The notes beneath the pieces are model-generated. The model saw only the letters and a program-made list of their open reading frames with translations. It was not told where the DNA came from and made no database searches. Below are positions 561-25,740 of a stretch of DNA of 35,284 nt, piece by piece (position 1 is the stretch's first letter; each line of letters begins with the position of its first letter). The stretch is from Acidimicrobiia bacterium (lineage in GTDB: Bacteria > Actinomycetota > Acidimicrobiia > Spongiisociales > UBA5794): NCBI GenBank assembly GCA_033791245.1, contig JASJHC010000403.1, positions 1 to 35,284 on the forward strand, given 5' to 3'. The translations under genes and the position numbers were made by a program.

Positions 561-564
561 GTAT

Positions 565-1434: not shown

Positions 1435-1453
1435 CCACTATGTGTTTACCACG

Positions 1454-1489
1454 TCAGCCCCCATGTTTCACGTGAAACATGGGGGCTGA
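1454..1489. repeat. 36-bp perfect palindrome (TCAGCCCCCATGTTTCAC|GTGAAACATGGGGGCTGA) enclosing parS, followed by a T-rich tract
   Basis: Arms 1454-1471 and 1472-1489 are exact reverse complements. TTCTTTT follows at 1490-1496. It lies 20 nt after the jag stop and contains the rsmG ATG (1479). Confidence 0.9.
1464..1479. promoter_or_regulatory. parS: parS centromere-like site, perfect match to consensus TGTTNCACGTGAAACA
   Basis: The sequence TGTTTCACGTGAAACA is read directly. It is located in the jag-rsmG intergenic region immediately upstream of parA-parB. Confidence 0.85.
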
Positions 1490-2105: not shown

Positions 2106-2122
2106 TCCCTGGGAGACCATCT

Positions 2123-2908
2123 ATGTCGAGTACCGGCGATGCGACGATCGTCGCAATCGCAAACCAAAAGGGTGGAGTCGGCAAGTCCACTACAGCTATC
2201 AACTTGGGTGCGGGTCTGGCGATCCAGGGGGAGCGAGTCCTTCTTGTCGATCTTGATCCGCAAGGAAACACCTCGTCGGGTCTAGGTATAGATCGGGGGA
2301 GCATCGAACTCTCCACGTATGACGTCCTTATCGACGATGTTGCCCTCGAGGACGTGATCGAGCCCACTTCGGTGCGGGATCTATACATAGTGCCCGCCAC
2401 GATCGAGCTCGCTGGGGCGGAGATCGAGCTAGTTTCTCTCTTCTCAAGAGAGATGCGGCTGGCAAACGCCCTCAAATCCATCCTCGACAGATACGACTTT
2501 GTGCTTATTGACTGTCCCCCGTCACTTGGTTTGCTGACAATCAATGGGCTGTCAGCTGCCAACGAAGTTGCCATACCTATCCAGTGCGAGTATTACGCAC
2601 TCGAGGGTGTGAGCCAGCTGATCCGAAATGTTCAGCTTGTTCAGCAAAGCCTAAACCCTCAACTTGAGGTCGAAGGTGTCATCCTTACCATGTTCGATGG
2701 CCGTACCACGCTGTCGGCCGATGTAGTCGAGCAGGTGCGGCAGCATTTCGGAGAGACCACCTACAAGACCGTAATCCCGCGCACCGTGAGATTGTCCGAG
2801 GCCCCGTCATACGGAGAGCCCATAGAGGCATTCGATCCGATGTCGCGAGGGGCAATTGCGTACAGAGAACTAGCACGCGAGTTTAGGAGGCGTCATGGCC
2901 GCACGTAA
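2123..2908 (+). CDS. parA: Chromosome partitioning ATPase ParA/Soj
   Basis: It has the deviant Walker A motif ANQKGGVGKSTTAINL, plus LLVDLDPQGN and a ParA-type C-terminus. GGGAG precedes the ATG. Confidence 0.95.
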   Translation: MSSTGDATIVAIANQKGGVGKSTTAINLGAGLAIQGERVLLVDLDPQGNTSSGLGIDRGSIELSTYDVLIDDVALEDVIEPTSVRDLYIVPATIELAGAEIELVSLFSREMRLANALKSILDRYDFVLIDCPPSLGLLTINGLSAANEVAIPIQCEYYALEGVSQLIRNVQLVQQSLNPQLEVEGVILTMFDGRTTLSADVVEQVRQHFGETTYKTVIPRTVRLSEAPSYGEPIEAFDPMSRGAIAYRELAREFRRRHGRT

Positions 2909-3743
2909 GGGTGGTTTGGGGAGGGGTTTGGACTCGCTGTTACCGGTAGATCGACCGAAGAGTGGCTTTGGGAACGTGTCGCTGGACGAGGTGGAGCCCA
3001 ATCCACAGCAACCACGGGTGAATTTCGACGAAGACCTGCTCCGCTCTTTGGCAGCATCGATCTCTGAGGTGGGGGTACTGCAGCCGGTGGTGGTGCGGCC
3101 AGAGGGCGATGGCTACGTTCTTATCGCGGGGGAGAGGCGTTGCCGAGCTGCCCGGATGGCGGGTCTGGAGACGATCCCGGCGATCATAAAGGGAACCGAC
3201 ACCGACGAGACCACCAGCCTTGCAGAGGCGCTTATTGAGAACGTGCAGAGAGAGGATCTATCTCCTCTCGAAGAGGCGGCCGGCTACCAGCAGCTCATGG
3301 AAGAATTTGGCTTGACCCATGACGCGGTGGCCGAAAAGGTGGGGAAGAGTCGCAGTGCGATAACCAATACGCTACGTCTCCTCCAGCTCCCGACGGTCAT
3401 TCAGGGAATGGTCGGGCGGGGCGAGCTTGCCGCAGGTCACGCCAGGGCACTTCTCGCCCTCGAGGATCAGGCCTACGCCACACATCTTGCGGAGCGCATA
3501 GCTGCGGAAGGCTGGTCGGTGCGTCAGGTCGAAGAGGCAGTCAGAAAGCGTGCAGGGGAGCAGGCCCCCACAGCTGCCCGGACGGACAAGGTCCGGCCGG
3601 CGGCCATCATTGAACTCGAAGATCGTCTCGGCGAACATCTCGGCACCGCGGTCAAGATCGATCATGGCAAGCGAGGCGGCAAGCTTGTGATCCGTTATGC
3701 ATCGCTCGATGATCTCGAAAGGATCTACGGCATCTTGTCCTGA
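2895..3743 (+). CDS. parB: Chromosome partitioning protein ParB/Spo0J
   Basis: It begins RKGGLGRGLDSLLP, has the ParB box GERRCRAARMAG, and an HTH segment LTHDAVAEKVGKSRSAITNTLRLL. AGGAGG precedes the ATG, and the start overlaps the parA end by 14 nt. Confidence 0.95.
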   Translation: MAARKGGLGRGLDSLLPVDRPKSGFGNVSLDEVEPNPQQPRVNFDEDLLRSLAASISEVGVLQPVVVRPEGDGYVLIAGERRCRAARMAGLETIPAIIKGTDTDETTSLAEALIENVQREDLSPLEEAAGYQQLMEEFGLTHDAVAEKVGKSRSAITNTLRLLQLPTVIQGMVGRGELAAGHARALLALEDQAYATHLAERIAAEGWSVRQVEEAVRKRAGEQAPTAARTDKVRPAAIIELEDRLGEHLGTAVKIDHGKRGGKLVIRYASLDDLERIYGILS

Positions 3744-7432: not shown

Positions 7433-8001
7433 TCGTCTCTTGGATGTCGCGAACCTGCTCTGAGGTTCCCAAGGGTTTCGGCAAGTACTTTTCTGCCGCG
7501 GAAAAGGCGCGACTTGATTGTTCCTATTGGCACATCGAGGATCTGGGCGGCCTGTTCCAACGCTAGGCCCTGTAGGTCGACAAGGACGACGGCCGAGCGG
7601 AAGTCCACAGGCACCCGTTGCAGCGCCTTTTCGATCTCCGGTCGGAGCTCTACGGCCTCGAATTCATCTCCGCTACGAGGATCGACTGGGTCCGCAATCT
7701 CAGGCAGCGGTTCGGTGCGCCGCCGCTTTGCCTTACGCAACTGGTCGTAGCAAGTGTTGACGGCCACCCGATACAGCCAGGTGCTGAATGCGGCCCGCTC
7801 TTCGTAGCGATCGGCTTTGCGGAAGACCGTTACAAAGGTCTCCTGGACCGCATCCAGGGCGGCTTCGCGGTCCCTCATCATGCGCAGACAGATACCGAAC
7901 ACCCGATCTTCGTGGGCGCGAACCAGTTCATCGAAGGCAGTGACGTCACCCCCGAGATACCGGTTGAGGAGCTGAACGTCCTCTGCGGCTCTGCTTGTCA
8001 T
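7429..8001 (-). CDS. ECF (group IV) RNA polymerase sigma factor, SigM-like by context
   Basis: Region 2 reads FDELVRAHEDRVFGICLRMMRDREAALDAVQETFVTVFRK and region 4 reads LQGLALEQAAQILDVPIGTIKSRLFRGRKVL. I chose ATG 8001 (190 aa). The 60 extra upstream codons of the ORF track are Ser/Pro-rich and unlike any sigma. Confidence 0.9.
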   Translation of the reverse strand: MTSRAAEDVQLLNRYLGGDVTAFDELVRAHEDRVFGICLRMMRDREAALDAVQETFVTVFRKADRYEERAAFSTWLYRVAVNTCYDQLRKAKRRRTEPLPEIADPVDPRSGDEFEAVELRPEIEKALQRVPVDFRSAVVLVDLQGLALEQAAQILDVPIGTIKSRLFRGRKVLAETLGNLRAGSRHPRDE

Positions 8002-9394: not shown

Positions 9395-10132
9395 TCAACC
9401 TTTTATCTGCAGCAGGGTTAGAGGTTCGGGCAGCGTGACAAATCCTTCGTCTTCGTAAAGGCGGATAGCAGAGACGTTGTCCATTTGGGTGTTGAGGAGA
9501 AGGACTTTGGCTCCCGAGGCCCGCGCCTTACGCGCAACAACACGAATGAGCGACCGTCCCATACCGTGACCCTGCCAGTCGGGGTGGACGGCAACCCGCT
9601 GCAGGTAGGCAATCGCGCTACCAAACCCGACAACGGCATATGCAATGGGGATTCCCTCGTTGCCCAATATGGTGAGAGTGGTTGATCGAGTTGTGGCTGA
9701 GATGGCTTCCACGAGGCCGCCTCGGTTGAATCGCCAAAACTCTGGAAAAGCGGCCGCATCGATGTCCAGCAGGTCATCGATGTCGATGTCGTTCTTCTCG
9801 ACTACGAGGTGATCTGGGTGACCCTCCGTTAGGTCTAACGATTTGCGCATGAGGGCCAGGTCCACGTAGCTCTGAAAGCCGGCCTGCAGCCAGGCACGCT
9901 GCGCCGAAAGAGTTAACGGGGGCGAGATGACACCCGTTGCGCCAAGACTGAGCAGACGCGTTGCGCACACTTCAAGGAAGGAAGAGCCCCCTCGCAACAA
10001 ACGCAAGGCAGCTTGGGGTTCGTGGTCGTTCCAGGGGCGGGCTTCTGCCCGCGCCCATCCGCGTCGCAGGGTGAGCCGGCCTGGCCATTCCCCTCGCTGA
10101 CTCACGTTGATGGGCTGGTCGGTTAGCGCCAT
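9395..10132 (-). CDS. GNAT-family N-acetyltransferase with an N-terminal extension
   Basis: It has acetyl-CoA motif A, LQRVAVHPDWQGHGMGRSLI, followed by NVSAIRLYEDEGF. Confidence 0.8.
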   Translation of the reverse strand: MALTDQPINVSQRGEWPGRLTLRRGWARAEARPWNDHEPQAALRLLRGGSSFLEVCATRLLSLGATGVISPPLTLSAQRAWLQAGFQSYVDLALMRKSLDLTEGHPDHLVVEKNDIDIDDLLDIDAAAFPEFWRFNRGGLVEAISATTRSTTLTILGNEGIPIAYAVVGFGSAIAYLQRVAVHPDWQGHGMGRSLIRVVARKARASGAKVLLLNTQMDNVSAIRLYEDEGFVTLPEPLTLLQIKG

Positions 10133-10359: not shown

Positions 10360-11448
10360 ATGGAACAACTACCGAATCTTGAGGCCCTTCTCGGCAAACT
10401 TGCCGAGATCGGCGCATCCGACCTACATCTCAAGGTTGGGTCGCCGCCTGCCTACCGGATTGATGGTCACCTGCATTTCTCGGAGCTACCCAAAGTGAAG
10501 CCCGACGACACCCAACAGTTCTCCCAGGAGCTGATGCAAGAGAAGAACCAGGATCTGTTCGAGCAGGATGGAGAGGTCGACTTCGGCTACGGGACCCCCA
10601 TACTTGGCCGCTTCCGTATCAACATTTATCGCCAGCGGGGTTCGATCGCACTCGTGGTTCGTGCAGTCGTTGCTGGCAGCAAAGGTTTTGTTGAACTGGG
10701 ACTCCCCGAAGCCGTTGGTCGTGCCTGCAAGGAAGACCGCGGCTTGGTCATCGTCACCGGTGCCTCCGGCTCCGGTAAGACCACCAGCCTCAACGCAATG
10801 CTCGATGAGATCAACTCGACACGTCGGGTGAGCGTGGTGACGCTCGAGGATCCAATCGAGATGCTCCATCGCGACAAGATGGCCATTGTCAGCCAACGTG
10901 AAGTTGGGGTGGACACAGTGAACTTTCCCGATGGCCTGCGCCGGATTCTTCGTCAGGATCCCAATGTCATCATGGTGAGCGAACTGCGCGATGCCGAGAC
11001 TATCGAGGCTGCCCTGTACGCCGCGGAGACCGGGCATCTAGTGCTGGCGGCGATGTACACGAACGACGCAACAGAGACCGTTAACCGTCTCGTCGAGGTC
11101 TTCGAGCCACATCGTCATCACCAGATGAGGCTCCGTATCGGCCGCAACATGAAGGCGATCATCAGCCAACGGCTTGTTTCCTCGGCGGATAGCTCGGGTC
11201 GGATTCCCGCAGTCGAGGTGTTGACCGAGACGGACCGCACATTCGACTACATCATGGATCCTGAGCTCACCACAAGGCTGGAAGAGGTCATGACCGAAGG
11301 CGCCTACTACGGGATGAAGACCTTCGATCAGTGTCTTCTCGCTATGTTCCGTGACGGTGTGATCACGTTTGAAGAAGCTCTCAACAACGCATCTCATACG
11401 AATGATTTCAGGATGGCGGCGCAGAAGACAGGTCTGCGCACAGCTTGA
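10360..11448 (+). CDS. pilT: PilT/PilU-family type IV pilus retraction-type ATPase (orphan)
   Basis: The N-terminus reads GASDLHLKVGSPPAYRIDG, Walker A is GASGSGKTTSLNAM, the Asp/Walker B region is PNVIMVSELRD, and the His-box region is ETGHLVLAAMYTNDA. Length is 362 aa. Confidence 0.85.
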   Translation: MEQLPNLEALLGKLAEIGASDLHLKVGSPPAYRIDGHLHFSELPKVKPDDTQQFSQELMQEKNQDLFEQDGEVDFGYGTPILGRFRINIYRQRGSIALVVRAVVAGSKGFVELGLPEAVGRACKEDRGLVIVTGASGSGKTTSLNAMLDEINSTRRVSVVTLEDPIEMLHRDKMAIVSQREVGVDTVNFPDGLRRILRQDPNVIMVSELRDAETIEAALYAAETGHLVLAAMYTNDATETVNRLVEVFEPHRHHQMRLRIGRNMKAIISQRLVSSADSSGRIPAVEVLTETDRTFDYIMDPELTTRLEEVMTEGAYYGMKTFDQCLLAMFRDGVITFEEALNNASHTNDFRMAAQKTGLRTA

Positions 11449-13691: not shown

Positions 13692-14423
13692 GTTACTCGA
13701 CATGCCGAGGACGCCGATGACGACTAGCCCCATTGCGCCGAGCAGCGCCAGCATGAAGCCGAGACCAAGATGGGCTGCCCTTGCATAGAAGTACATGACG
13801 ACGAACGTGACTGCGCCTGCCGCGATTGCTACCGCAGATCCGGTGATCCGATTGCTATCGAAGTAGGCGAGATACAGTCCGAAGAGTCCGCCGAGGGCAC
13901 CAAAGCCGGCGAGTAGTCGCCCGAGGGGAAAGCTGCCTGGATCCATCAGCCGGAACGGTCCCCAGTTGAGGGCTGCCCCGACCAGGATGAGTACCGCGGC
14001 CGCCGCCATCCCTATCGCGAGGAGGTTGTGGAGCTTTGAATCTTCGAGGTAAGCGGCGGCGGCCTTGGTCCTGAGATCACTGAATTCATCAGTGGGCGGG
14101 AGAGCCACCGGTACCGCTGCGGCAGCCGTCTTGGCTTTGGTCTTCTTCTTGTAGCGGCGTTTTTTGGGTGGTGGCGTGTCATTGACCCCGAGCAGGTCCA
14201 GGAAGAAGGCACCGTTTTCGAGGGCGAGGACAAGGGTCTCGTCATCTGCGACAAGATAGAGCTCCTCCTTGACCTTCTTGACCTGCACGTCTGCGTGTGG
14301 CCAACTGCCGATCTCTGCGTCACCGGCGCGGATTGAGACACGGTTCAGGTCAAGCGTTACTTTGGCATCGAGGGCCGCATCGGGCTCATCGAGGAGATGA
14401 ACGGTTCCATAGAAATCGTGCAT
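13659..14423 (-). CDS. Hypothetical membrane protein: soluble N-terminal domain, Lys-rich linker, four C-terminal TM helices
   Basis: I chose ATG 14423 (MHDFYGTVHLL...). It has a PPPKKRRYKKKTKAKT linker and then hydrophobic helices. I recognised no family. Confidence 0.55.
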   Translation of the reverse strand: MHDFYGTVHLLDEPDAALDAKVTLDLNRVSIRAGDAEIGSWPHADVQVKKVKEELYLVADDETLVLALENGAFFLDLLGVNDTPPPKKRRYKKKTKAKTAAAAVPVALPPTDEFSDLRTKAAAAYLEDSKLHNLLAIGMAAAAVLILVGAALNWGPFRLMDPGSFPLGRLLAGFGALGGLFGLYLAYFDSNRITGSAVAIAAGAVTFVVMYFYARAAHLGLGFMLALLGAMGLVVIGVLGMSSNGGAAPPEDNV

Positions 14424-14499
14424 GGACACCCTTACTTTCAGATCAAGTATGAGAATCGGGTGGATTGGTGCTCTCCTTGAGCACCAATCCATTTCGCCG

Positions 14500-15222
14500 T
14501 TATCTGCGCGGGACCTCTGCCCAAGGGAGGTCCTTGTCGATTCGTGGTTCTCCGGGGAGCCCGAGGACCTGCTCGCCGAGGATGTTCTTCACGATTTCCG
14601 ACGTCCCGCCTTCGATGGAATTAGCCCGGCTCCTGAGAAAGGAGCGGCAGACATCCTCAGGCCCCTCAGGGACGAGGAGCTCGTATGTGTCGTAGAGCAT
14701 GCCGGCGGCACCCAGCAGAGAGACGGCCATTTCGTAGATCTGCTTGGTCAGTTCAGCGAAGACCCCACTTGGCAATGTGGGCAACTGTGGTCCAGACCTT
14801 CTGACCGTTGACTACCCACTCGTCGCCGTCTTTGACGGCACGAGTTGCCAGCGCGGCGACGTCAGATCCGGTTCCGGGTTCCGAGAAGAGCTGATACCAG
14901 ATTTCCTCTCCGGTAAAGAGCGGCCGCAGGTAGCGGTCGAGCTGGTCCTCGTTTCCGTGTGCCAGCAGCATGGGGGCACCCATGCCATGGCCGATGATGT
15001 CAAAGAACGTGGGGCGATGGGCCGTAGCGGTGTTGAGGCGCTCGTCGACGAGGTCTTGATAGCGGTGACTCAAGCCAAGGCCACCCTGCCTTTGGAAAAG
15101 CGCACCCAGGCGAGTCCGAGGTCAAATTGTGCGCCCATGAGCTCGTCGCGATCGCCGGCGGGATCGTGTTCTGTCACAAGTTGATCGAGGAGGCTGCTGA
15201 TCAGTCTCGCTTCGTTGCTCAC
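14500..15222 (-). pseudogene. Acyl-CoA dehydrogenase remnant (one frameshift plus a large internal deletion)
   Basis: Three collinear pieces lie in three frames. The N-terminus runs 15222-15070 (VSNEARLISS...ELMGAQFDLGLAWVRFSKGR). The second piece runs about 15085-14753 (GGLGLS...FTGEEIWYQLFSEPGTGSDVAALATRAVKDGDEWVVNGQKVWTT). The C-terminus runs 14784-14500 (...SIEGGTSEIVKNILGEQVLGLPGEP). Together they give about 245 aa against about 390-400 for intact homologues. Confidence 0.8.
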
Positions 15223-15234
15223 ACGAACACAGCC

Positions 15235-16092
15235 CTAAACGACTACGAGTTCTTTGATACCAACCTTCTTGATGATGTCAGCGAGGCTCTGGAGGTGGGC
15301 CGGGTCGGCTTCGGGTATGTCAGAGAACTGGGGACGAACACCTTGTTGCCGGAATCCGATGAGCTTGATTCGCATTGCGGGGTCGACGTCGTACAACCAA
15401 CGTGCGGTGCGCTCGACGACCTCAGGGGAGTCGTTCTTGCCGGGGACCATGAGGAGGCGAACTTCGTAGAGGCGTTGCCACTCGGCCAGATGCTTGATCG
15501 ACTCGAGGACGGCGGTGTTGTCGCTCCCCGTCATCTCCATGTGCACGGCCGGATCGAGTGCCTTGAGGTCGATCATGGCCCCGTCCATAACCGGAAGGAG
15601 GCGGTCCCAGGTGTCACGACTTGCCGATCCGTTGGAGTCGATGAATGTCGTGAGGTGTCCCAGCTTGTCGGAACACTTGAGAGAGCAAAACAGGTTTGCG
15701 ACGAAATCTGTCTGCAGGGTTGGTTCTCCTCCGGAAACGGTGATGCCGGAGATGAAGTGGGAAACGTCTTCGATCTGTTTGACCAGAGTGTCGAGCTTGA
15801 CCATCTTGCTCAGTGGGGTGCTATCGGATGGGCACACGTCTATGCAAATACCGCATTCTGTACATTGATCTTCGTCGACGACTACTTGCTGGCGGCCGTC
15901 GAACCAGAGAACCATCTCGGGACAAGGTTCGACACAGATCCCGCAACTGTCGCACTCGTTGATGGTGTAAGGGTTGTGACAGGCGATGCAGTTGAAGTTG
16001 CAGCCCTGCATGAACACAACAAAACGGTTGCCCGGTCCGTCGACCGCGCTAAACCGGATTACATCATTGAGGTGCCCTTGGGCTGCTTTCAC
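15235..16092 (-). CDS. yjjW: Glycyl-radical enzyme activating protein (radical SAM, YjjW-like, with two ferredoxin-type Cys clusters)
   Basis: It has VDGPGNRFVVFMQGCNFNCIACHN (CxxxCxxC), then CDSCGICVEPCP and CTECGICIDVCP, and GITVSGGEPTLQ. The GTG start overlaps the upstream GRE gene by 29 nt. Confidence 0.85.
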   Translation of the reverse strand: MKAAQGHLNDVIRFSAVDGPGNRFVVFMQGCNFNCIACHNPYTINECDSCGICVEPCPEMVLWFDGRQQVVVDEDQCTECGICIDVCPSDSTPLSKMVKLDTLVKQIEDVSHFISGITVSGGEPTLQTDFVANLFCSLKCSDKLGHLTTFIDSNGSASRDTWDRLLPVMDGAMIDLKALDPAVHMEMTGSDNTAVLESIKHLAEWQRLYEVRLLMVPGKNDSPEVVERTARWLYDVDPAMRIKLIGFRQQGVRPQFSDIPEADPAHLQSLADIIKKVGIKELVVV

Positions 16093-17614
16093 GACTGAGG
16101 ACCCGCTTTACGTATCTGTCTGTTACGTGCGAGTTCTTCACAGATCCGGCCGCAAATACCGTGCTTCCGTGCCGGCCACCCATCTCGTCGAACTGTTCCA
16201 CGTCGCATTTCCGGACGAGATATCCGGTAATGCGGATGAAACCGTTCGTCGCAAGATTGAACGTGAAGTCCCGCATGCCCTCTCTGAAGGCACCCCGGAT
16301 GATATCTACCATCGCGGAGGGGTTACGACGTACGGTGTCTTCCACGTGAAAGATGTCGCTGACACCTGCGTGGAACAGGTCATGGTGAGGAGCGACGGCG
16401 CGGATGTGGTCGAACATCTCGGGCTCTTCGCCGATGGGGATGCGGGTTCCGGCTGTCACTTCGAGATCGCTGTCGATGCCCGATTGGGAGTGGAGGAACG
16501 CCCTGCCGTTGTTGCCCTCGCAGTACGGCATCGGTCGATCGGCAACGAGTTCGGCGATCCTTGCGGTGATTCGATACGAGAGCTGGTTGGCTTCGTCGTC
16601 GTGTCCGTAGCGGCCTTCTTGGCCGGCGGCTTCCATGAGCAGGTCTACCGCCTCGGCGAGGCCGTAGACACCGTACATGGCAGAGAATCTGTCGAGTTCG
16701 ATGAGTCCCTCGACGGCAAGGAAGTCGTGTTCGAAGAACTTGGCTTCTTCAACCAGGTAGCGGATCCGAGCTTCAATGAGTTCGGAGAGAAGCTCCACAT
16801 AGTGGGGGAGGGTTTCGTCGATGAAGCTATCGATGCCACCTTGGTGGAGTAGAGCAACCTCTTTGAGGTTGAGCCGATTGAGGGTGTGGGAGCCGCCACC
16901 GATCTTCAACGAGTTGTAGCAACTCACTGCTGCATAGTCCTCGCCAAGGTCGCGCACCATCAGCGGATGGTTCACAAAGTGTGGCTTGCCGGTCTCGAAA
17001 ACGGTCAGCACCGCTTCGAGAATCAGTTCGTCTGGGGTGATCTCCGGGTCAACCTTGAGGCTGACGTTCGGTACGACCTGGAGCAGTTCGCGTTCGATAC
17101 GAAACAGAGTGCGGGAGATCCGGCTGTCGTGTGGTCCGAGGTTGGTGTGGACAAAAGCGTCCGGGAGCATGCGGTCGAGGGCTCGCCAGAACAGCTTGAG
17201 CTTCTTGTAGAGAGCATCGTCATCTTCAGCCTCGGCATACGGTTCGAGGATCTTGTCGAAGTCACCCAGATATACCGGGTAACCGGTGATCGATGGCACC
17301 TGGGTGTACATGATGAGAAGGAAGTTGAGGGCCTCGTCGAGGTCGGTTGGGGCGTCGAGCTCGAGGTGTGCGGACCCATTGCGGAGTGCCTTGCCATAGT
17401 CGGGGAGGATGTAGCGACCCCGATACGGTGCGGGCCCTTCGAAGAGATCACAAATAATCTGCTTATTGAGGGCCTCACGAGCTGCTTCGCTCAATGTCGG
17501 GTATTCGAGGACACCCTCAGCCAAACCGGCAAGGTAATGCTTGCGTTGGTGGTAAGTAAGGGTCGGATCGTTGACCACTTGCCGGGTCCGGATCCGAAAT
17601 TCCTCCATGTTCAT
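16064..17614 (-). CDS. yjjI: YjjI-family glycyl-radical enzyme (small, 516 aa, function unknown)
   Basis: I chose ATG 17614, which lies 8 nt after AGGAGG. The resulting 516 aa equals the length I recall for E. coli YjjI. The C-terminal motif FIRITGYLV fits RVxG[FWY]. It is immediately followed by a dedicated activase. Confidence 0.75.
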   Translation of the reverse strand: MNMEEFRIRTRQVVNDPTLTYHQRKHYLAGLAEGVLEYPTLSEAAREALNKQIICDLFEGPAPYRGRYILPDYGKALRNGSAHLELDAPTDLDEALNFLLIMYTQVPSITGYPVYLGDFDKILEPYAEAEDDDALYKKLKLFWRALDRMLPDAFVHTNLGPHDSRISRTLFRIERELLQVVPNVSLKVDPEITPDELILEAVLTVFETGKPHFVNHPLMVRDLGEDYAAVSCYNSLKIGGGSHTLNRLNLKEVALLHQGGIDSFIDETLPHYVELLSELIEARIRYLVEEAKFFEHDFLAVEGLIELDRFSAMYGVYGLAEAVDLLMEAAGQEGRYGHDDEANQLSYRITARIAELVADRPMPYCEGNNGRAFLHSQSGIDSDLEVTAGTRIPIGEEPEMFDHIRAVAPHHDLFHAGVSDIFHVEDTVRRNPSAMVDIIRGAFREGMRDFTFNLATNGFIRITGYLVRKCDVEQFDEMGGRHGSTVFAAGSVKNSHVTDRYVKRVLSRESSPRAPQ

Positions 17615-17710
17615 TGTGAGACCTCCTGGGCGCATGCCCGGACTAATAATCGAGCATCGGAGCCGATTTGTCCAGTGGTCTACTAGAGGTTCCCAGTTGT
17701 CAGTAGTCTC

Positions 17711-19219
17711 ATGGCTCATGATCGTCACCAACACCCGGCTATGAAGACGCCTACCGAAGCACGCATATGGCGTGGTCCCATTTCTCGTCCTTCACGCCGT
17801 GAACTGCTCGCTCTCCTCGCGATTCTTGCCGTGTCGGGCCTGGTGGCTGCCAAATTTGTGGCTGCCGGTGCCCCGCTTGGGCATGACGAGGCGGTCTATG
17901 CCCTCAAGAGCCGCCAGATGAAGTTGGGGGGCACTTCAGCGTGGTACTGGAACGACTATCGATCACCCGGGCTGCCGTTGCTGCTCCAACTGACCTGGTT
18001 GGTTAGGGGCACCGAACCGTTCTTGCGGATGAGTGTGTGGGCGTTCGGTTCTCTGGGTGTGATCCTTACGTGGTTGATCGGTCGCAGCCTGTTTAGTACA
18101 CGGGCGGGTTTGTTGGGGGCTGCTGGGCTGTCACTTGCCTCGCCGTGGCTTGCGTCTTCAACAAGTATTTGGCCCGATGTCCCTGGTGCTGTCTTGGGAA
18201 TGGCAGCGATAGCGATCGTCTTGTTTGCTACCGATGGCGATCGTGTCTCATGGTGGGTTCTGGCTGCAGCACCGTTTGCCGTTGCCGCGGTCCTGGTTCG
18301 TTACGGCGCTCTGGTCCCGATGGGCATCGGTGGCCTGGCGATTCTGATATGGCGGTGGCCGATGCTCCGTCGCGGGTGGCCGCAGCTACTGAGCCTTGCT
18401 TCGATTATCGCGGTAGGGAGCCTTCTGATCCTTTTGGTGCCGGGCGTCACCGGTGCAGCTACCAGTCCGTTGTCTTCGATCAACACTTCGAAGGCGGCGT
18501 CTGACTTCCCAATTACCCAAGGCATTCGCGACTACATCAGGCAGGCCGACTTTGTCGCAGGCGGCTACGTGGGGCTTCTCCTCATATTGGGGCTGGTGCT
18601 GGCTGTCCTCTATGCGAAGAAGGATCCCGGGCTACGAGCCTCCGCGGTATTCGTGTTTTCGGTCACCGGGGCGACTGCTCTTGTTCTGGTCTTGATTCTG
18701 CATGGGGAGTATCGATATTTGGTCCCGGTCTTTCCTTTTGCGTGGATCCTCGGCGGCATGGGTCTCGCCGAAGCATCTCGCAGGATTCCGCGGGAGACGG
18801 CCATGGCTGTTGCCGTCGTACTGGCGATTCTTCTCCCGATCAACGCACTGTCGCACGGTGACTTGGAGGCGGACAAAAATGACGAGCGATTTGGTGACCT
18901 GCGGCTCGTTGCCACCGCGATCGATGCTGAACATGGCTATGAAGAATGCGGAGTCATCACTTCGTATATTCCACAGGTTGCCTGGTATAGCGAGTGCGTA
19001 ATTCGTCGCTTTGAGACGGTGCCGGTGCTCACCTCCCCCTTCTTTGTGGAACCGCAGGCGGATTACATGCTGCTGGTCACGGGAGGAAAGCGCCAGCCTC
19101 AGGGAGAGAGCCTTGATGCCTATTTGGAAACGACCGACGAGGTCTTTATCGAGTCAGGAAACCCCGAGGCAGGCAATCTGGAATACGCGGTCGTATACAC
19201 GTTGCAGGACGATAGCTAG
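17711..19219 (+). CDS. GT-C fold membrane glycosyltransferase (family 39 / ArnT-PMT_2-like)
   Basis: It has about 11 TM helices and a first-loop HDEAVYA motif (the DE motif of ArnT/PMT enzymes), plus a C-terminal soluble domain of about 130 aa. The start could be ATG 17711 or ATG 17741. Confidence 0.65.
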   Translation: MAHDRHQHPAMKTPTEARIWRGPISRPSRRELLALLAILAVSGLVAAKFVAAGAPLGHDEAVYALKSRQMKLGGTSAWYWNDYRSPGLPLLLQLTWLVRGTEPFLRMSVWAFGSLGVILTWLIGRSLFSTRAGLLGAAGLSLASPWLASSTSIWPDVPGAVLGMAAIAIVLFATDGDRVSWWVLAAAPFAVAAVLVRYGALVPMGIGGLAILIWRWPMLRRGWPQLLSLASIIAVGSLLILLVPGVTGAATSPLSSINTSKAASDFPITQGIRDYIRQADFVAGGYVGLLLILGLVLAVLYAKKDPGLRASAVFVFSVTGATALVLVLILHGEYRYLVPVFPFAWILGGMGLAEASRRIPRETAMAVAVVLAILLPINALSHGDLEADKNDERFGDLRLVATAIDAEHGYEECGVITSYIPQVAWYSECVIRRFETVPVLTSPFFVEPQADYMLLVTGGKRQPQGESLDAYLETTDEVFIESGNPEAGNLEYAVVYTLQDDS

Positions 19220-19557: not shown

Positions 19558-19585
19558 TTGACACTTATGCACATATGCGTATAAT
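19558..19585 (+). promoter_or_regulatory. Consensus sigma-70-type promoter of the arg operon (TTGACA-16 bp-TATAAT)
   Basis: TTGACA is at 19558-19563 and TATAAT at 19580-19585, 26 nt upstream of the argC ATG region. Both hexamers match the consensus exactly. Confidence 0.65.
19565..19584. promoter_or_regulatory. ARG-box-like imperfect palindrome (TTATGCACATATGCGTATAA) overlapping the promoter spacer and -10
   Basis: 16 of 20 positions are self-complementary. The ATGCA/TGCAT-like half-sites resemble actinobacterial ArgR operators (from memory). argR is encoded in the same operon. Confidence 0.5.
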
Positions 19586-19610
19586 CGCCGCTCTTGAAAC
19601 AGAAGGACTC

Positions 19611-20639
19611 ATGAAAACCCGCATCGCCATCTTGGGTGCCTCCGGGTATGCCGGGGGCGAACTTATACGTTTGGTCGATGACCATCCCGACTTGGAAGTC
19701 ACGTTCCTAGGTGCTCACACCAAGGCCGGTGCCAAGCTCAGCGAGGTGCACCCCCACCTGACCGGCGGGGACCGTGACCTGCAGCCAAACAACCCCGACG
19801 CGGTCAATGCAGACCTTGCTTTCCTAGCTCTTCCCCATGGTGCATCTACAGATCCCGCAATGCGGCTGTTGGGCAACGGTGTCAAGGTTGTCGATCTAGG
19901 CAGCGATTTTCGGATGGACTCGCCAGCCCGCTACGAAGCGGCTTATGGGTCGCCGCACCCCTTTCCAGAGGAGCTGGGGAAGTGGCCGTACGGTATTCCC
20001 GAGTTGTTTGGGGACCAGTTGGTTGGTGCTGATCGGGTGGCGGCTCCTGGTTGCTATCCGACCTCGGCGTTGCTGGCAACCGCCCCGCTGCAGAGAGCCG
20101 GGTTGATCGGTGACGGCACGGTGATTGTCGACTCGATGTCCGGTGCGTCTGGCGCGGGTCGTGCCGCCAAGGAGAACCTGACCTTTGGTGCGATCGACGA
20201 GGGAGTCAGCGCATATGGTGTGCTCACCCATCGGCACCGCCCGGAGATCGAGCAGGGCTTGGGCGCAGTCGGCGATGTTGAGCCCACTGTCATCTTCACT
20301 CCGCATCTGGTGCCAATGCAGCGGGGAATCATGTCAACTTGTTACGTCCCGCTGGCCGACGGCACTGACGCGGGAACGATCGGCGAGGTCTACGAGTCTG
20401 CATACGCCAAGACCCCGTTTGTGACCGTCGTCGATCAGTTGCCGATCACCCGCTGGATCGTGGGCACTAACCGTGCTCTGGTGAAACCACACTTTGATCC
20501 GCGCACCAACACTGCCGTTGTGGTCTCGGTGATTGACAACCTGCTCAAAGGGGCTGCCGGCCAGGCGGTGCAGTGCGCCAACCTGATGCTGGGTCTCGAA
20601 GAAACCGCCGGATTGCCGATGGCAGGGTGGATGCCGTGA
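19611..20639 (+). CDS. argC: N-acetyl-gamma-glutamyl-phosphate reductase
   Basis: ATG 19611 follows GAAGGA. It has IAILGASGYAGGELIRL and the active-site region AAPGCYPTSA. Confidence 0.95.
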   Translation: MKTRIAILGASGYAGGELIRLVDDHPDLEVTFLGAHTKAGAKLSEVHPHLTGGDRDLQPNNPDAVNADLAFLALPHGASTDPAMRLLGNGVKVVDLGSDFRMDSPARYEAAYGSPHPFPEELGKWPYGIPELFGDQLVGADRVAAPGCYPTSALLATAPLQRAGLIGDGTVIVDSMSGASGAGRAAKENLTFGAIDEGVSAYGVLTHRHRPEIEQGLGAVGDVEPTVIFTPHLVPMQRGIMSTCYVPLADGTDAGTIGEVYESAYAKTPFVTVVDQLPITRWIVGTNRALVKPHFDPRTNTAVVVSVIDNLLKGAAGQAVQCANLMLGLEETAGLPMAGWMP

Positions 20640-21799
20640 GCGTCACCGCGGCCGCCGGCTTCACCGCAGCGGGAATTGCGTCGGGAATCAAGCCCGCGGG
20701 CAAACTCGATCTGGCGCTGGTCGTCGGAGGGGAGTCGACAATTGGCGCCGCCGTCTTCACCGTCAATCAGGCGGCAGCGGCCCCGGTGACTTTGTCAAGA
20801 CACCACTTGGCGAGTGACCCAACTGTCCACGCCGTACTTCTGAACTCGGGCTGTGCCAATGCTGGGACCGGAGCACCGGGGCTCGTCGCTGCTAGGGGTT
20901 CGGTAGAAGCCGTTGCCGCGTCGCTCGATTGCTCAGTTGAAGATGTCCTCGTCTGCTCCACAGGCGGTATCGGGAAGCCGCTTCCCATCGATCTGGTCTT
21001 GGCTGGCATCCCCAACGCAATTGCGTCGCTCGAAAAGGGTTCCGACGCGGGAACACTGGCGGCTCGGGCGATCATGACCACAGACACGGTGCCAAAGGAG
21101 AGCGTCCGGTCCCGCGACGGGTTCACCGTCGGCGGGATGGCCAAAGGTGCCGGCATGGTCCGCCCCGACATGGCGACCATGCTGGTTGTGCTCACTACTG
21201 ACGCGGTGGTGGATCCGAGTCTTCTGCAAGAGGCGTTGCGGGGGGCTGTCGACGAATCGTTCCACGCCCTCAATATCGATGGATGCCCTTCCACCAATGA
21301 CACCGTCATCTTGCTGGCATCCGGCGACAGCGAGTTCACCCCCACCCCGGGCGTCTTCATACAGACGGTTACCGCCGTCTGCTGGGACCTGGCGAACCAG
21401 TTGGCCGCCGACGCCGAGGGGTCGAGCCGGGTCGTGACGATTGAAGTCCACGGTGCGGTCGACGATGCGACCGCAAGACGGGCCGGCCGCCTCGTCGCCG
21501 ATTCCGCATTGGTACGGTCGGCGTTCTTCGGTGGGGATCCGAACTGGGGCCGACTCCTTGGCGCTTTGGGTGCCACGGACTTGAAGTTCGATCCGGACCT
21601 GTTTGGTGTTGCCTATGAGGGGATAGACATTGCGCGAGCCGGGGTGGCGGTCCCTCACGACAACGTTGCTCTTCACGACGCCATCACGACTGGAGACTTC
21701 AACGTCACGATGACAATCGGTGCCGGCCCAGGGAGCGCCCGAGTAATCACTACCGACCTAACGCCCGAATACGTGACCTTCAACGCGGAGTACAGCTGA
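20636..21799 (+). CDS. argJ: Bifunctional ornithine acetyltransferase / N-acetylglutamate synthase
   Basis: The GTG start overlaps the argC stop (GTGA). The N-terminus reads VTAAAGFTAAGIASGIK, and the autoprocessing site is PDMATMLVVLTTDA. Confidence 0.95.
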   Translation: MSVTAAAGFTAAGIASGIKPAGKLDLALVVGGESTIGAAVFTVNQAAAAPVTLSRHHLASDPTVHAVLLNSGCANAGTGAPGLVAARGSVEAVAASLDCSVEDVLVCSTGGIGKPLPIDLVLAGIPNAIASLEKGSDAGTLAARAIMTTDTVPKESVRSRDGFTVGGMAKGAGMVRPDMATMLVVLTTDAVVDPSLLQEALRGAVDESFHALNIDGCPSTNDTVILLASGDSEFTPTPGVFIQTVTAVCWDLANQLAADAEGSSRVVTIEVHGAVDDATARRAGRLVADSALVRSAFFGGDPNWGRLLGALGATDLKFDPDLFGVAYEGIDIARAGVAVPHDNVALHDAITTGDFNVTMTIGAGPGSARVITTDLTPEYVTFNAEYS

Positions 21800-22707
21800 T
21801 GATCAACACCGGACACTCAACGCCCCACGAGGCCAAACCGCGTATCGCCAAGACGATGGGCAAGGCGCGCATCTTCTCCGAAGCCCTGCCATTCATCAAG
21901 GACTTCCGCGGCAAGACCGTCGTCATCAAGTACGGCGGATCGGCAATGGTCGACGAAGGTCTAAGAAGCACGTTTGCCGACGATGTGGCGATGATGCACT
22001 ACGTCGGAATCAACCCCGTCATCGTCCATGGTGGTGGCCCGCACATCTCAGCTGCCATGGGCCAGCGTGGTATCGAGCCGCAGTGGTTTGAGGGTCTTCG
22101 AGTTACCAACGAAGAGACCATTCGGGTGGTTCAGTCAACCCTCGCTGGGGAGATCAACCCCGACATCGTCCGTCTGATCAACGCTCATGGTTCGGTTGCC
22201 GCCGGTATCAACGGCCTGGACGGGAATCTCTTCGTCGCAAAGCCCAAGGACGAGCGGCTCGGGTTTGTCGGCGAGATCACTGAGGTCAACCCCGGCCTGA
22301 TTCAGAGTCTGCAACATCAGGGATATGTCCCGGTGGTTGCTCCGTTGGCACGTGGTGAAGACGGCAAGGTATATAACCTCAACGCCGACACCGCGGCTGG
22401 TGCGCTTGCCGAAGCGCTTGGTGCACTCAAGGTGATATATCTCACCGATGTCGAGGGCCTGTACCGCGATCTTGGCGACAAGGACTCGCTTATCGCCAGA
22501 ATCGTTCTGGATGACTTGCAGGCTTTGATCAACTCGGGGTCGGCTTCAGCAGGCATGCTGCCGAAGCTCGAGTCCTGCATTTCGGCGGTTCGCGGTGGCG
22601 TCGAGCGGGCCCACATTCTCGACGGTCGGATGCAGCACGCCTTGTTACTCGAGGTGTTTACTCCAGAAGGGATTGGAACGATGGTGACCATAGAGCCGGT
22701 CGTATGA
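21799..22707 (+). CDS. argB: Acetylglutamate kinase
   Basis: It has LPFIKDFRGKTVVIKYGGSAM, VIVHGGGP and NLNADTAAGALA. It overlaps the argJ stop by 1 nt. Confidence 0.95.
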   Translation: MINTGHSTPHEAKPRIAKTMGKARIFSEALPFIKDFRGKTVVIKYGGSAMVDEGLRSTFADDVAMMHYVGINPVIVHGGGPHISAAMGQRGIEPQWFEGLRVTNEETIRVVQSTLAGEINPDIVRLINAHGSVAAGINGLDGNLFVAKPKDERLGFVGEITEVNPGLIQSLQHQGYVPVVAPLARGEDGKVYNLNADTAAGALAEALGALKVIYLTDVEGLYRDLGDKDSLIARIVLDDLQALINSGSASAGMLPKLESCISAVRGGVERAHILDGRMQHALLLEVFTPEGIGTMVTIEPVV

Positions 22708-23174
22708 GTCCGGCAACTGCATCACGACGCCGTCTGATTAGAAAGCTCATTGGGTCGGGATTAATCACGAGCCAGGCGAAACTCGTCGAGATGCTGGAGG
22801 CGGAGGGCTTTCCTGTCACCCAGGCCACAGTTTCTCGCGATCTGGTGGCGATAGGTGCCTTCAAAACTCGCGATGAGGACGGCCGGGTCCACTACAGCAC
22901 GGCGGCAAGCCTCGAGGAGTTGTCGGAGGCCGAGATCAGGCTGCGGCGGGCCGTCAATGACTTTGTGGAAGAGATTTCAGTTTCCGACAACGTTGTTGTC
23001 ATCCACACACCACCGGGAGCGGCCCACCTTGTCGCCGGCGCCATAGATGCGGCCCGGGTGGACGGTGCGATCGGCACCATTGCCGGCGATGACACGCTGA
23101 TGGTTGTTGCTGACGCCGAGGTCGGCGGCAGTGAAGTTGCTTCAAAGATCGAAGAAATGGGAGTTAGAAGATGA
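22704..23174 (+). CDS. argR: Arginine repressor
   Basis: The winged-helix N-terminus reads [40 protein letters not shown] and the C-terminal oligomerisation region contains GTIAGDDT. The start forms an ATGA overlap with argB. Confidence 0.9.
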
Positions 23175-24385
23175 GAGATATCAAAAAGGTTGTTCTTGCC
23201 TACAGCGGTGGTTTGGACACTTCTGTGATCTTGCAGTGGATCAAGGATGAATACGGTGCCGAGGTGGTTACTTACACCGCGGATGTTGGTCAGGGCGAGG
23301 AAGTGGCCGAGGCAGAAGAGAAGGCCATGGCCACCGGAGCTTCTCAGGCCATTGTCGATGATCTGCGTGCCGAGTTTGTGTCCGATTTCGTGTTCCCGGC
23401 GATCCGCGCCAATGCCATCTACGAGGGCTACTACCTGTTGGGTACCTCACTGGCCCGCCCCATTATCTCCAAGGGCATGATGGAGGCTGTGAAAGCAACC
23501 GGCGCCGATGCCATTGCCCACGGTGCCACGGGCAAGGGCAACGATCAGGTACGTTTTGAGTTGGCTGCCTATGCCATCGACCCGACGATCAAGGTCATTG
23601 CCCCATGGCGGGAGTGGGATCTCAAGGGAAGGGCCGATTGCGTCGCCTACGCCGAGGAGCGCAACATCCCGATTCCGGTGACGCCAGAAAAGCCATATTC
23701 GATGGACGCCAATCTGCTGCACATCTCGTTCGAGGGTGGGGTCCTGGAGGACCCATGGGTGGCACCGCCCAAGGGCATGTTCCGGATGACCGTTGATCCG
23801 TGGGAAGCCCCGGACATGATGGAGACGTTGGCTATCGAATTCGAGAAGGGCGATGCCGTTGCCATCAATGGGGTTCGGATGAGCCCTGTTGAGATCCTCA
23901 CCAAGCTCAATACGATCGGTGGGGCGCATGGCATTGGCCGGGTCGATATCGTCGAGAACAGGTTTGTTGGCATGAAGTCCCGAGGTGTCTATGAGACGCC
24001 GGGTGGGACGATCCTGCATCACGCCCATCGTGCGGTCGAGTCGCTGACCTTGGATCGCGAGGTCACCCATCTACGTGATGAGTTGTCGCCCCGCTATGCG
24101 GAGATGGTCTACAACGGGTTCTGGTATTCGCCGGAGCGTGAGGCTCTGCAGAAGTTCATGGACGAGATCCAGCAGCGGGTCAACGGCGAGGCACGCATGA
24201 TTTTGTACAAGGGCAATGTCATTGTCGATGGGCGTCGCTCTGATTCCCACAGCTTGTACGACGAGGCCACGGTTACGTTCGAAGCCGACGAGGTCTATAA
24301 CCAGGCCGACGCCGATGGCTTCATCCGTCTCCAGTCGCTGCGGCTGCGCACCTTTGCCGAGAAGCGTCTCGGAGAGGGCGAGTAG
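23171..24385 (+). CDS. argG: Argininosuccinate synthase
   Basis: It has [13 protein letters not shown] and [15 protein letters not shown]. The start forms an ATGA overlap with argR. Confidence 0.95.
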
Positions 24386-24387
24386 AC

Positions 24388-25740
24388 ATGTCCCTGTGGG
24401 GCGGCAGATTCGAGGAGGGCCCGGCCGAGTTGTTGTGGCGGTTCACCGTCGATCGTTCTGATCGGCGTTTGCTGGTCGACGACATTGAAGGCTCCGTAGC
24501 CCACGCCGCGATGCTGGCCGATGTCGGGATACTAAGTGCGGAAGAAGCCACCGCGATTGCCGATGGTCTGGCCGCGGTGCTGGAGGAGGCCCGCTCCGGC
24601 GAGTTTGAGTGGTCCGATGGCGATGAAGATGTGCACTCGGCAGTCGAAAGGCGTCTTGGTGAGCTCATCGGTCCGTTGGCGGGCAAACTGCATACCGGCC
24701 GGTCCCGCAATGACCAGATCTGTCTCGACTTGCGGTTGTACCTGCGGCGGGCCGCCGATGCACGTGCGGTTCAGGTTGTAGACCTGGTGCGGGTGTTGAT
24801 GCACCTCGCGGAGGAGGTTGGCGATACGGTCGTTGCCTCATACACCCATGTGCAGCAGGCACAAGCCGTGCCGCTGGCGCATCATCTTCTGGCCTATGCC
24901 TGGATGTTGGTACGGGACCGTGATCGGTTCCAGGATGCCTGTTCCCGTATTGACATGTCGCCCCTCGGCGCTGGTGCTTCGGCGGGGAGTCGGTTGCCGC
25001 TGGATCCGGCCAACAGTGCGGAGAGACTCGGCTTCTCTTCTGTCTTTGCCAATTCGATGGATGCGGTTGCGTCCCGGGACTTCGTTGCGGAATATGCCTT
25101 CTGCTGTGCACAGACGATGGTGACCTTGTCGCGGCTGTCCGAGGAGTTGGTGCTGTGGGCAAGCGAGGAGTACTCGTGGGCGACGTTTGATGATGCCTTC
25201 ACGACGGGCTCATCGGCCATGCCGCAGAAGAAGAACCCCGATATTGCCGAGCTGGCCAGGGGCAAGACGGCAACTGTCATCGGGGACCTCACCGGTCTCA
25301 TGACGCTGCAGAAGGGGCTTCCCCTCACCTACAACAGGGACCTGCAGGAGGACAAGCGGGCCGTCTTCCATGCAGACGACACGGTGTCGTTGGCGCTGGC
25401 GGCATTGGGCGGGATGATCGAGAGTGCGGTGTTTCACCCGCCGCAGCCTTCCTCGATGGTGACGGCTCTCGATCTTGCCGAGATCCTGGTGAACCGTGGT
25501 GTTCCTTTCCGGCAAGCCCATGAGGTTGTTGGTGGTCTGGTCGCCGGTTTGGTTGCGGAAGGACGCACACTTTCGGATACCACGGCTGCCGAGCTGGAGG
25601 CGGCCCATTCCCAATTGTCTGCGGACGATCTCGCTTCACTGACTCCGGCCGCCTCGGTGGCGGACCGGGTTACCGCCGGTGGTGGTTCGATGGAGTCGGT
25701 GCAGACTCAGCTGGCTGCCTTGCGCGAGCTGTTCGGATAG
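24388..25740 (+). CDS. argH: Argininosuccinate lyase
   Basis: It begins MSLWGGRFEEGP, has YTHVQQAQAV, and carries the fumarate-lyase signature GSSAMPQKKNPD. Confidence 0.95.
   Translation: MSLWGGRFEEGPAELLWRFTVDRSDRRLLVDDIEGSVAHAAMLADVGILSAEEATAIADGLAAVLEEARSGEFEWSDGDEDVHSAVERRLGELIGPLAGKLHTGRSRNDQICLDLRLYLRRAADARAVQVVDLVRVLMHLAEEVGDTVVASYTHVQQAQAVPLAHHLLAYAWMLVRDRDRFQDACSRIDMSPLGAGASAGSRLPLDPANSAERLGFSSVFANSMDAVASRDFVAEYAFCCAQTMVTLSRLSEELVLWASEEYSWATFDDAFTTGSSAMPQKKNPDIAELARGKTATVIGDLTGLMTLQKGLPLTYNRDLQEDKRAVFHADDTVSLALAALGGMIESAVFHPPQPSSMVTALDLAEILVNRGVPFRQAHEVVGGLVAGLVAEGRTLSDTTAAELEAAHSQLSADDLASLTPAASVADRVTAGGGSMESVQTQLAALRELFG

Follow-up and report, generated by a model that had tools for sequence, protein, structure and literature searches.

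A conserved YjjI-type glycyl-radical enzyme and its YjjW-type activase in an uncultured Acidimicrobiia bacterium

Among the glycyl-radical enzymes of Escherichia coli, YjjI is one of the last that lack an assigned reaction. A gene pair resembling yjjI and yjjW, the latter coding for the cognate radical S-adenosylmethionine (SAM) activase, is found in a 35,284-nt contig of an Acidimicrobiia bacterium (JASJHC010000403.1, assembly GCA_033791245.1; the whole of this stretch is hereafter called the window). Acidimicrobiia are usually treated as aerobic, and the locus raises the questions of whether such a pair is functional in this lineage, what type of chemistry it may perform, and how it could be controlled. 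An earlier note, made from the sequence alone, had assigned the two genes to the YjjI and YjjW families and drawn attention to their isolated position. Taken as a whole, the evidence presented here is, with high probability, best explained by a functional, vertically inherited yjjI-yjjW operon that operates by a glycyl-radical mechanism in an uncultured Acidimicrobiia bacterium.

The yjjI gene (16064..17614, minus strand) encodes a protein of 516 amino acids (aa) that matches the TIGR04040 model over positions 2-497 of 497 with 694.8 bits (E 5e-209; curated cut-off 498.3 bits) and PF11230 (DUF3029) with 661.8 bits (cut-off 23). The product of yjjW (15235..16092, minus strand, GTG start; 285 aa) matches TIGR04041 over positions 2-275 of 276 with 322.7 bits (E 2e-96; curated cut-off 250.2 bits), its second-best model being that of the PFLE_PFLC and eliminase activases (TIGR02494, 151 bits). 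Among models of other glycyl-radical enzymes, only PF13597 (NRDD) gave a partial and marginal match to YjjI (27.8 bits against a cut-off of 26.2, residues 195-356); the NCBIfam models of NrdD, the class III ribonucleotide reductase, did not match at E <= 0.01, and the Pfam scan of YjjI retrieved neither PF02901 nor PF01228, nor an ATP cone. By every testable criterion the pair belongs to the YjjI and YjjW families, and YjjI lies outside the NrdD and pyruvate formate-lyase (PFL)-like families. The scores, well over the cut-offs, bear out the identity given in the earlier note, including the accessions that it had named. Its description of the substrate as unassigned also holds: PDB searches by sequence, with a single sequence or with a family profile, returned no match to YjjI, no functional paper on its reaction or role was found in the accessible literature to mid-2026, no report of glycyl-radical formation for any family member was found in the searched literature, and the name YjjI is absent from a 2026 review of glycyl-radical enzymes.

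The sequence features expected from this assignment are in place at both ends of the proposed radical pathway. The glycyl-radical motif R461-I-T-G464-Y465 (16220..16234, minus strand; G464 codon at 16223-16225) lies within the C-terminal FIRITGYLV of YjjI, at the tip of a predicted beta-hairpin formed by strands 459-462 and 465-468. The predicted thiyl-radical site is C232 (codon at 16919-16921) in the cysteine finger loop V230-S-C232-Y-N234 (16913..16927, minus strand), inside AAVSCYNSLKIGGG. The only other cysteines of YjjI are at positions 55, 365 and 470, and residues 430-516 hold no cysteine cluster. In YjjW, the radical-SAM motif C31-x3-C35-x2-C38 (15979..16002, minus strand; PF04055 and PF13353 matches) is followed by two CxxCxxCxxxC ferredoxin-type motifs (15832..15954, minus strand; C47/C50/C53/C57 and C77/C80/C83/C87; Fer4_7, Fer4 and Fer4_9 matches over residues 46-90), which by analogy would be sites for auxiliary [4Fe-4S] clusters. 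yjjW begins, with its GTG, inside the 3' end of yjjI, which gives an overlap of 29 nt (16064..16092, minus strand), an arrangement that may couple their translation. The protein length, the C-terminal glycine motif, the overlap and all three activase motifs had been read correctly in the earlier note. A Shine-Dalgarno sequence AGGAGG (17622..17627, minus strand) stands 7 nt 5' of the yjjI ATG at 17614, and GGAG or GGA is kept at this position in orthologous loci. A longer open reading frame (ORF) of 556 aa, starting from a GTG at 17734, was considered as the yjjI gene and rejected, given that homologues share the methionine start of the 516-aa form.

Comparison with E. coli K-12, whose YjjI (b4380) and YjjW (b4379) are the founders of the respective families, shows a close correspondence. 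YjjI has 516 aa in both organisms, with 46% identity, and YjjW has 285 aa in the window versus 287 aa in E. coli; the gene order, the 29-nt overlap, the RxTGY glycine motif, the VSCYN cysteine loop and the three cysteine motifs of the activase are common to both. The two copies differ in their surroundings and in their likely control. The E. coli copy adjoins deoCABD, and its yjjI is activated directly by FNR (PMC3688515), whereas the window copy is situated near the chromosome origin, between a GT-C type glycosyltransferase gene and an acyl-CoA dehydrogenase pseudogene, with no nucleoside genes nearby, and carries a clade-specific palindromic operator-like site that differs from the E. coli control region. 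Anaerobic induction of yjjI has also been described in Yersinia (PMC3792023), and in E. coli the gene is co-expressed with nar genes (PMC3228777). The link to the NsrR regulon suggested in the earlier note could not be traced: no paper joining yjjI and NsrR was found in the searched literature, and the documented regulator is FNR.

Is the pair maintained in this lineage? The closest genomes are metagenome-assembled genomes of Acidimicrobiia, and public proteins are 88-98% identical to the window YjjI, the named ones, from Acidimicrobiia genomes, being annotated as "YjjI family glycine radical enzyme". Eight related loci (L001-L007 and L037) are syntenic with the window and share the order argJ-argC, a variable gene, yjjI-yjjW, a membrane protein, CCA-adding enzyme, RNase H, a T2SSE-type ATPase and a GNAT protein. 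YjjI is the most conserved protein of this block, with 94% identity to L001, compared with 72-90% for ArgJ, ArgC, the CCA-adding enzyme, RNase H and the T2SSE ATPase. Ratios of nonsynonymous to synonymous substitution rates (dN/dS), calculated against seven orthologues, are 0.03-0.08 for yjjI and 0.06-0.16 for yjjW; synonymous sites are close to saturation. Both genes are under strong purifying selection. Their GC content at third codon positions (GC3) is 0.70-0.71, in line with the 0.65-0.73 of the neighbouring genes. Since synteny is retained, dN/dS is low and GC3 is neighbour-like, the pair is best regarded as functional and vertically inherited. The opposite reading, in which it would be a relic, decaying or silent, or would have arrived recently by horizontal transfer and have no role, could draw on the adjoining acyl-CoA dehydrogenase gene, which is indeed a pseudogene, and on the similarity of YjjI between phyla (the protein of the Firmicute Anoxybacter fermentans is 67% identical), which indicates horizontal transfer at some time in the history of the family. 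Against this stand two intact ORFs that are full-length with respect to the models, the substitution ratios and the synteny in eight related genomes, as well as the conservation of the promoter, the operator-like site and the Shine-Dalgarno sequence. GC, GC3 and synteny give no sign of recent transfer, which was rejected, and the relic or recent-import reading is largely refuted; we regard it as highly improbable.

The wider distribution was assessed in a set of 130 loci from genomes and metagenomes, 119 of which contain enough sequence to judge the neighbour of yjjI. YjjW adjoins YjjI in all 119, and more loci (63) show the 29-nt overlap than any other arrangement. An apparent absence of yjjW from a complete Acidimicrobiia chromosome (L026, CP070681, ~9650-9750) turned out to be an artefact of a masked run of N. 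All-against-all clustering of the ORFs located within 6 kb of yjjIW in the 130 loci revealed no third gene conserved with the pair. The neighbours recovered (ABC ATPase, FtsE, SmpB, M23 peptidase and membrane proteins) are clade-specific, with the exception of a LysR-type regulator gene in ~9 loci; an EamA transporter was considered as a partner and dismissed, being present 5' of yjjI in three loci only. The description of the locus as a clean two-gene unit is thus upheld across these loci, while two elements of surprise in the earlier note are not. The location had been called unexpected, yet nearly identical Acidimicrobiia proteins are already named and the arrangement recurs in eight related genomes; the absence of metabolic neighbours, presented as a peculiarity, is the rule for the YjjI family in Actinomycetota. 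The yjjI-yjjW pair is common in Acidimicrobiia, and the window copy is ordinary apart from the unassigned substrate of the family.

The family is a compact one, with only ~500 matching clusters at 50% identity in a set of 1.84 billion representatives; of the 150 of these that were listed, about 20 are full length. It is highly conserved between phyla: besides the 67% of Anoxybacter, identity to the window YjjI is 46% for E. coli and 41% for an archaeal member. The archaeal member is a 532-aa homologue encoded in a contig (L132, 8001-10364; JGI 3300037598) that also contains genes for eIF-1A, NMD3, RIO1 and eIF-2B; because this archaeal contig carries a homologue, the YjjI family extends, as judged from sequence, to the Archaea. 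In L132, yjjI is preceded by genes for an S-adenosylmethionine decarboxylase and an alpha/beta hydrolase and followed by that of a 247-aa activase without Fer4 matches, so perhaps not every activase of the family has the ferredoxin insert.

What fold would support the radical chemistry? An AlphaFold2 model of YjjI, built from a 60-sequence alignment, reached a mean predicted local distance difference test (pLDDT) score of 91.4 and a predicted TM-score (pTM) of 0.90. It contains ten barrel strands (67-70, 115-118, 156-159, 183-188, 212-215, 240-249, 310-317, 373-376, 421-424 and 449-454) and two hairpins, 227-237 (strands 227-231 and 234-237) and 459-468, which carry C232 and G464 at their tips. 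The earlier note had left the choice between a full and a half barrel to structure prediction; according to the model, the barrel is full and ten-stranded, with the Cys and Gly hairpins of the glycyl-radical enzyme superfamily fold. Foldseek ranked class III ribonucleotide reductases at the top, led by the NrdD of Prevotella copri (8p2s_B, E 8.8e-18, query-normalized TM-score 0.75), with the S. thermophilus and phage T4 enzymes also among the top matches. Lower ranks were occupied by PflD, YbiW, propanediol and diol dehydratases and PFL, with PDB entries 8id7 and 8id0 listed. The Foldseek probability was 1.00 for NrdD, PflD, PFL and the dehydratases alike.

Conservation across the family singles out the same two residues. 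In an alignment of 29 divergent members, of which 21 are divergent cluster representatives of 480-560 aa, C232 is present in all 29 sequences and G464 in 27; G464 is also invariant in the 60-sequence alignment. The two sequences without it have a C-terminus scrambled in the alignment and are probably frameshifted or truncated. C55, considered as a second catalytic cysteine, was rejected on the grounds that it is replaced by His, Asp or Tyr in some divergent members of the 29-sequence set. On the alignments, no catalytic candidate other than C232 and G464 is conserved throughout the family; this supports the candidate thiyl-radical cysteine put forward in the earlier note. Many polar or charged residues in or beside the predicted barrel strands are invariant as well (R67, H156, N183, N215, T244, R247, H375, Q377 and R461).

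The nearest solved fold being that of NrdD, it has to be asked whether YjjI might be a minimal reductase of the class III type, one that strips a hydroxyl from a ribonucleotide or related compound with formate or a thiol as reductant, as in NrdD. Besides the structural ranking and the weak NRDD match described above, several likenesses speak for such a relation. Both proteins have the ten-stranded barrel and a C-terminal Gly loop of the RxxGY type, and in an hhalign comparison with E. coli NrdD the Cys loop of YjjI falls on that of NrdD, with C232 on the thiyl cysteine C384. In addition, the YjjI motif I-[CH]-D-[LM]-x-E-G near the first strand, which reads IHDLDEG where position 55 is His, resembles the HDLD motif that NrdD has in the same region. 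The two proteins also differ in several respects. Sequence identity is only 13-15%, and YjjI is 130-200 residues shorter, without the ATP cone, the C-terminal zinc ribbon and the second redox cysteine of NrdD. No conserved YjjI cysteine matches E. coli NrdD C175, at which position the hhalign alignment, itself of low probability, has a gap. The methionine of the NrdD1 type, M382, is matched by V230 in the window protein and by Val or Ala in the family. The activase is of the YjjW type, larger than that of NrdD and with two ferredoxin-type clusters, rather than of the NrdG type. E. coli has nrdDG elsewhere on its chromosome. Its nrdD mutants are unable to grow strictly anaerobically, so YjjI does not act as a substitute. 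We consider the reductase reading very unlikely. PFL-type enzymes (PflB, PflD, YbiW, glycerol and propanediol dehydratases, HypD and CutC) share the superfamily fold with YjjI (E 1e-14 to 1e-10), and the ferredoxin insert of YjjW also occurs in activases of the PflA/CutD type, but YjjI is ~250-300 residues shorter than these enzymes and its loop S-C232-Y-N is neither the Cys-Cys pair of PFL nor the Cys-x-Glu of the eliminases.

For the glycyl-radical enzyme preferred here, a mechanism can be proposed from family membership and established glycyl-radical enzymology. Under anoxia, the [4Fe-4S] cluster bound by the CxxxCxxC motif of YjjW would cleave S-adenosylmethionine reductively, with electrons probably reaching this cluster via the two ferredoxin-type clusters, and the resulting 5'-deoxyadenosyl radical would take a hydrogen atom from G464 of YjjI to leave a stable glycyl radical. 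In each turnover the radical would be handed from G464 to C232, which sits on the facing finger loop in the middle of the barrel, and the C232 thiyl radical would abstract a hydrogen from the substrate and later return it. Because the enzyme has a single universal cysteine and is without a second redox cysteine, a zinc ribbon and an ATP cone, its reaction is probably redox-neutral (that of a lyase, isomerase or eliminase) rather than a reduction of the NrdD type.

Which substrate would enter this barrel? The high conservation of the family, the lack of a conserved pathway gene and the invariant polar residues in or near the barrel strands together suggest a common, polar metabolite that is probably anionic or phosphorylated. 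Most gene contexts of yjjI give no hint of a substrate, and some non-actinobacterial ones point weakly to something more specific, a pentose derived from nucleosides. On this proposal, which would refine the substrate part of our preferred explanation without contradicting it, YjjI would act on a nucleoside-derived pentose or pentose phosphate by radical C-O or C-N cleavage or dehydration and pass the product to a DeoC-type aldolase. The relation of its fold to ribonucleotide reductase would suit such a substrate, and in E. coli, Edwardsiella and a further gammaproteobacterial contig (L051) yjjI and deoCABD are divergently oriented. Directly 3' of yjjW, L046 and L051 have a gene for a NupC nucleoside transporter, and in L047 the end of a NupC-family gene (TIGR00804, 472 bits) lies 70 nt 5' of yjjI in the same orientation. 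L050 has a YjjI with only 41% identity to that of the window; there, genes for a nucleoside hydrolase (RihC/RihA-like), an adenosine deaminase fragment and a PfkB ribokinase-like kinase precede, in this order and co-directionally, yjjW and yjjI. A precedent exists in YbiW/PflD, for which anhydro-sugar phosphates are opened ahead of an aldolase (PMC13450708). Nevertheless, the enterobacterial contexts share ancestry and count as about one observation, the NupC of L047 being 74% identical to theirs; in Proteus, yjjI occurs without deo genes; these genes are common in general, and their adjacency to yjjI could be due to chance; and no comparable nucleoside context was seen in ~120 actinobacterial loci, in Anoxybacter, Halanaerobiales or Cetobacterium, or in the archaeal locus. 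The pentose is accordingly a reasonable candidate but held only tentatively, and we judge the proposal to be rather unlikely in this specific form.

The region 5' of yjjI also has conserved features. A putative promoter, TGGACA with a 17-nt spacer and GATTAT (17646..17674, minus strand), is the only promoter-like match in 14400-17900 and would drive the pair; TGGACA(A) is conserved 5' of yjjI in many Acidimicrobiia loci. Phylogenetic footprinting revealed a 17-bp palindromic operator-like site (17671..17687, assigned to neither strand), which reads TCTAGTAGACCACTGGA on the gene strand and overlaps the -35 hexamer. Its consensus, TCYAGYGGAnCACTRGA, contains a T-N11-A dyad and is kept although the aligned orthologous intergenic regions are only 49% identical overall. 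It has no second match at <=1 mismatch in the window, and in 1.3 Mb of loci there are 16 matches at this threshold, of which 10 are positioned 60-109 nt 5' of yjjI, in eight close relatives. Two copies of the palindrome, ~48 nt apart, are present in L002, L003 and L053. A role as a widespread regulon motif was rejected, since the palindrome occurs almost only at yjjI promoters within the 1.3 Mb and no regulon can be deduced from it. An NrdR box was considered as well, but the half-site order TAGTG...CACTA would be the reverse of the NrdR consensus. An RNA element or riboswitch 5' of yjjI was likewise discarded, as Rfam scans yielded nothing at gathering thresholds across the whole window or at E <= 1 over 17500-17850.

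These features suggest that, in the clade of the window, expression of yjjI is probably controlled at the palindrome over the -35 element. The T-N11-A dyad and the LysR genes situated beside yjjI in relatives suggest a regulator of the LysR type, and a ligand-responsive control of this kind is plausible from the motif and gene context. Such genes adjoin yjjI in the ~9 loci mentioned above (including L009, L014, L018, L033, L042, L049 and L062). In other Acidimicrobiia the gene of a LysR-type regulator is divergent from or adjacent to yjjI, and the promoters share the elements AGGTTAtCG, CCAaTGGACA and gCATAnTGG. A second Acidimicrobiia clade (L010 at ~7900-7960, L011, L013, L029 and L023) has tandem 7-bp direct repeats 60-110 nt 5' of yjjI, immediately ahead of its promoter, in three to six copies and with a unit that differs between genomes (TACGGAA, TACCGAC or ACGGACA); these may serve as an array that binds a regulator or be a tract prone to slippage.

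Several points weigh against the picture drawn so far. Radical formation, the role of C232 and the roles of the auxiliary clusters are all assigned by analogy with other glycyl-radical systems. The hhalign probability for YjjI and NrdD is only 24%, which leaves residue equivalences beyond the Cys loop uncertain, and the conserved polar residues are placed in the active site on the strength of strand positions in the predicted model. The argument for a redox-neutral reaction assumes that, where a second cysteine is lacking, the enzyme does not employ formate or another external small-molecule reductant. With respect to regulation, the 35-kb window contains no LysR gene, and with respect to the substrate, tblastn searches of the actinobacterial loci for deoABCD, nupC, pfkB and rih returned only a deoA-like gene ~5.4 kb from yjjW in L014. 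A more far-reaching synthesis, in which YjjI would be an NrdD-derived, single-cysteine, redox-neutral radical enzyme whose substrate, a pentose from nucleosides or its phosphate, is opened or dehydrated, and which in Acidimicrobiia is switched on by a LysR-type regulator at the palindrome, is one that we find unlikely. If true, it would mean that nucleosides or ribose can be broken down anaerobically by a branch so far overlooked, whose product goes to an aldolase such as DeoC.

The genomic surroundings of the operon are those of a housekeeping region, as the earlier note had stated. The left end of the window is occupied by yidC-jag-rsmG-parA-parB (51-3743), followed by genes for trxB, a sigma factor, a GNAT protein, a T2SSE ATPase, RNase H and the CCA-adding enzyme; this left part is a classic origin-proximal actinobacterial block. 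Cumulative GC skew climbs almost monotonically over 1-35284, consistent with a single replichore beside oriC. The T2SSE/PilT-type secretion ATPase (10360-11448, plus strand) stands alone between the GNAT gene and that of RNase H, with no other pilus or secretion genes near it; it is 83-90% identical across related loci and among the most conserved genes of the block. On the other side, the arginine cluster argC-argJ-argB-argR-argG-argH (19575-25740) is accompanied by genes for alanine dehydrogenase, an Lrp regulator, a phosphoenolpyruvate (PEP)-utilising enzyme and PhoD. Within it, argB (21799-22707) abuts argR (22704-23174), and argD and argF, which in Actinobacteria typically lie between these two genes, are not in the cluster. 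No tRNA genes were found in the window.

Both immediate flanks of the operon, described in the earlier note as a dead fadE and a GT-C glycosyltransferase gene, were recognised as such. The acyl-CoA dehydrogenase remnant (14500..15230, minus strand), outside the unit, sits between yjjW and the gene of a 277-aa membrane protein and comprises two fragments (14500-14784 and 14753-15073) with Acyl-CoA_dh_M and Acyl-CoA_dh_1 Pfam matches. The gene is intact (~400 aa) in L001 and absent in L002-L007; compared with L001, the window version has lost ~145 internal residues and acquired a stop, so that gene loss is caught in progress right next to an operon under strong conservation. The gene divergent from yjjI (17711-19219) encodes a membrane protein with a PMT_2 match, of the GT-C glycosyltransferase type. 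This position is variable: a PMT_2 (GT-C) protein is found in the window and in L037, and L006 (6272-7906) and five related loci including L001 have an unrelated 544-aa polytopic membrane protein there. The yjjI promoter region is retained whichever divergent gene is present.

What is new here is the purifying selection on the pair, the palindrome over the -35 element, the LysR neighbours in relatives and, in Gammaproteobacteria and one further lineage, the position of yjjI next to nucleoside or ribose genes. The window adds little beyond E. coli, in the form of comparative constraints only, and it shows strong selection on a stand-alone pair in Acidimicrobiia. The hypotheses are narrowed to a mechanism with one cysteine, probably redox-neutral, on a scaffold like that of NrdD, with a possible nucleoside or pentose link and with a suggestion of small-molecule-responsive regulation, and they can be addressed directly in E. 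coli, which is the better place for the open question. Assignment of the YjjI reaction would establish a new class for radical enzymology and would fill a gap in the anaerobic metabolism of Enterobacterales, Firmicutes, Fusobacteria, Actinomycetota and some Archaea.

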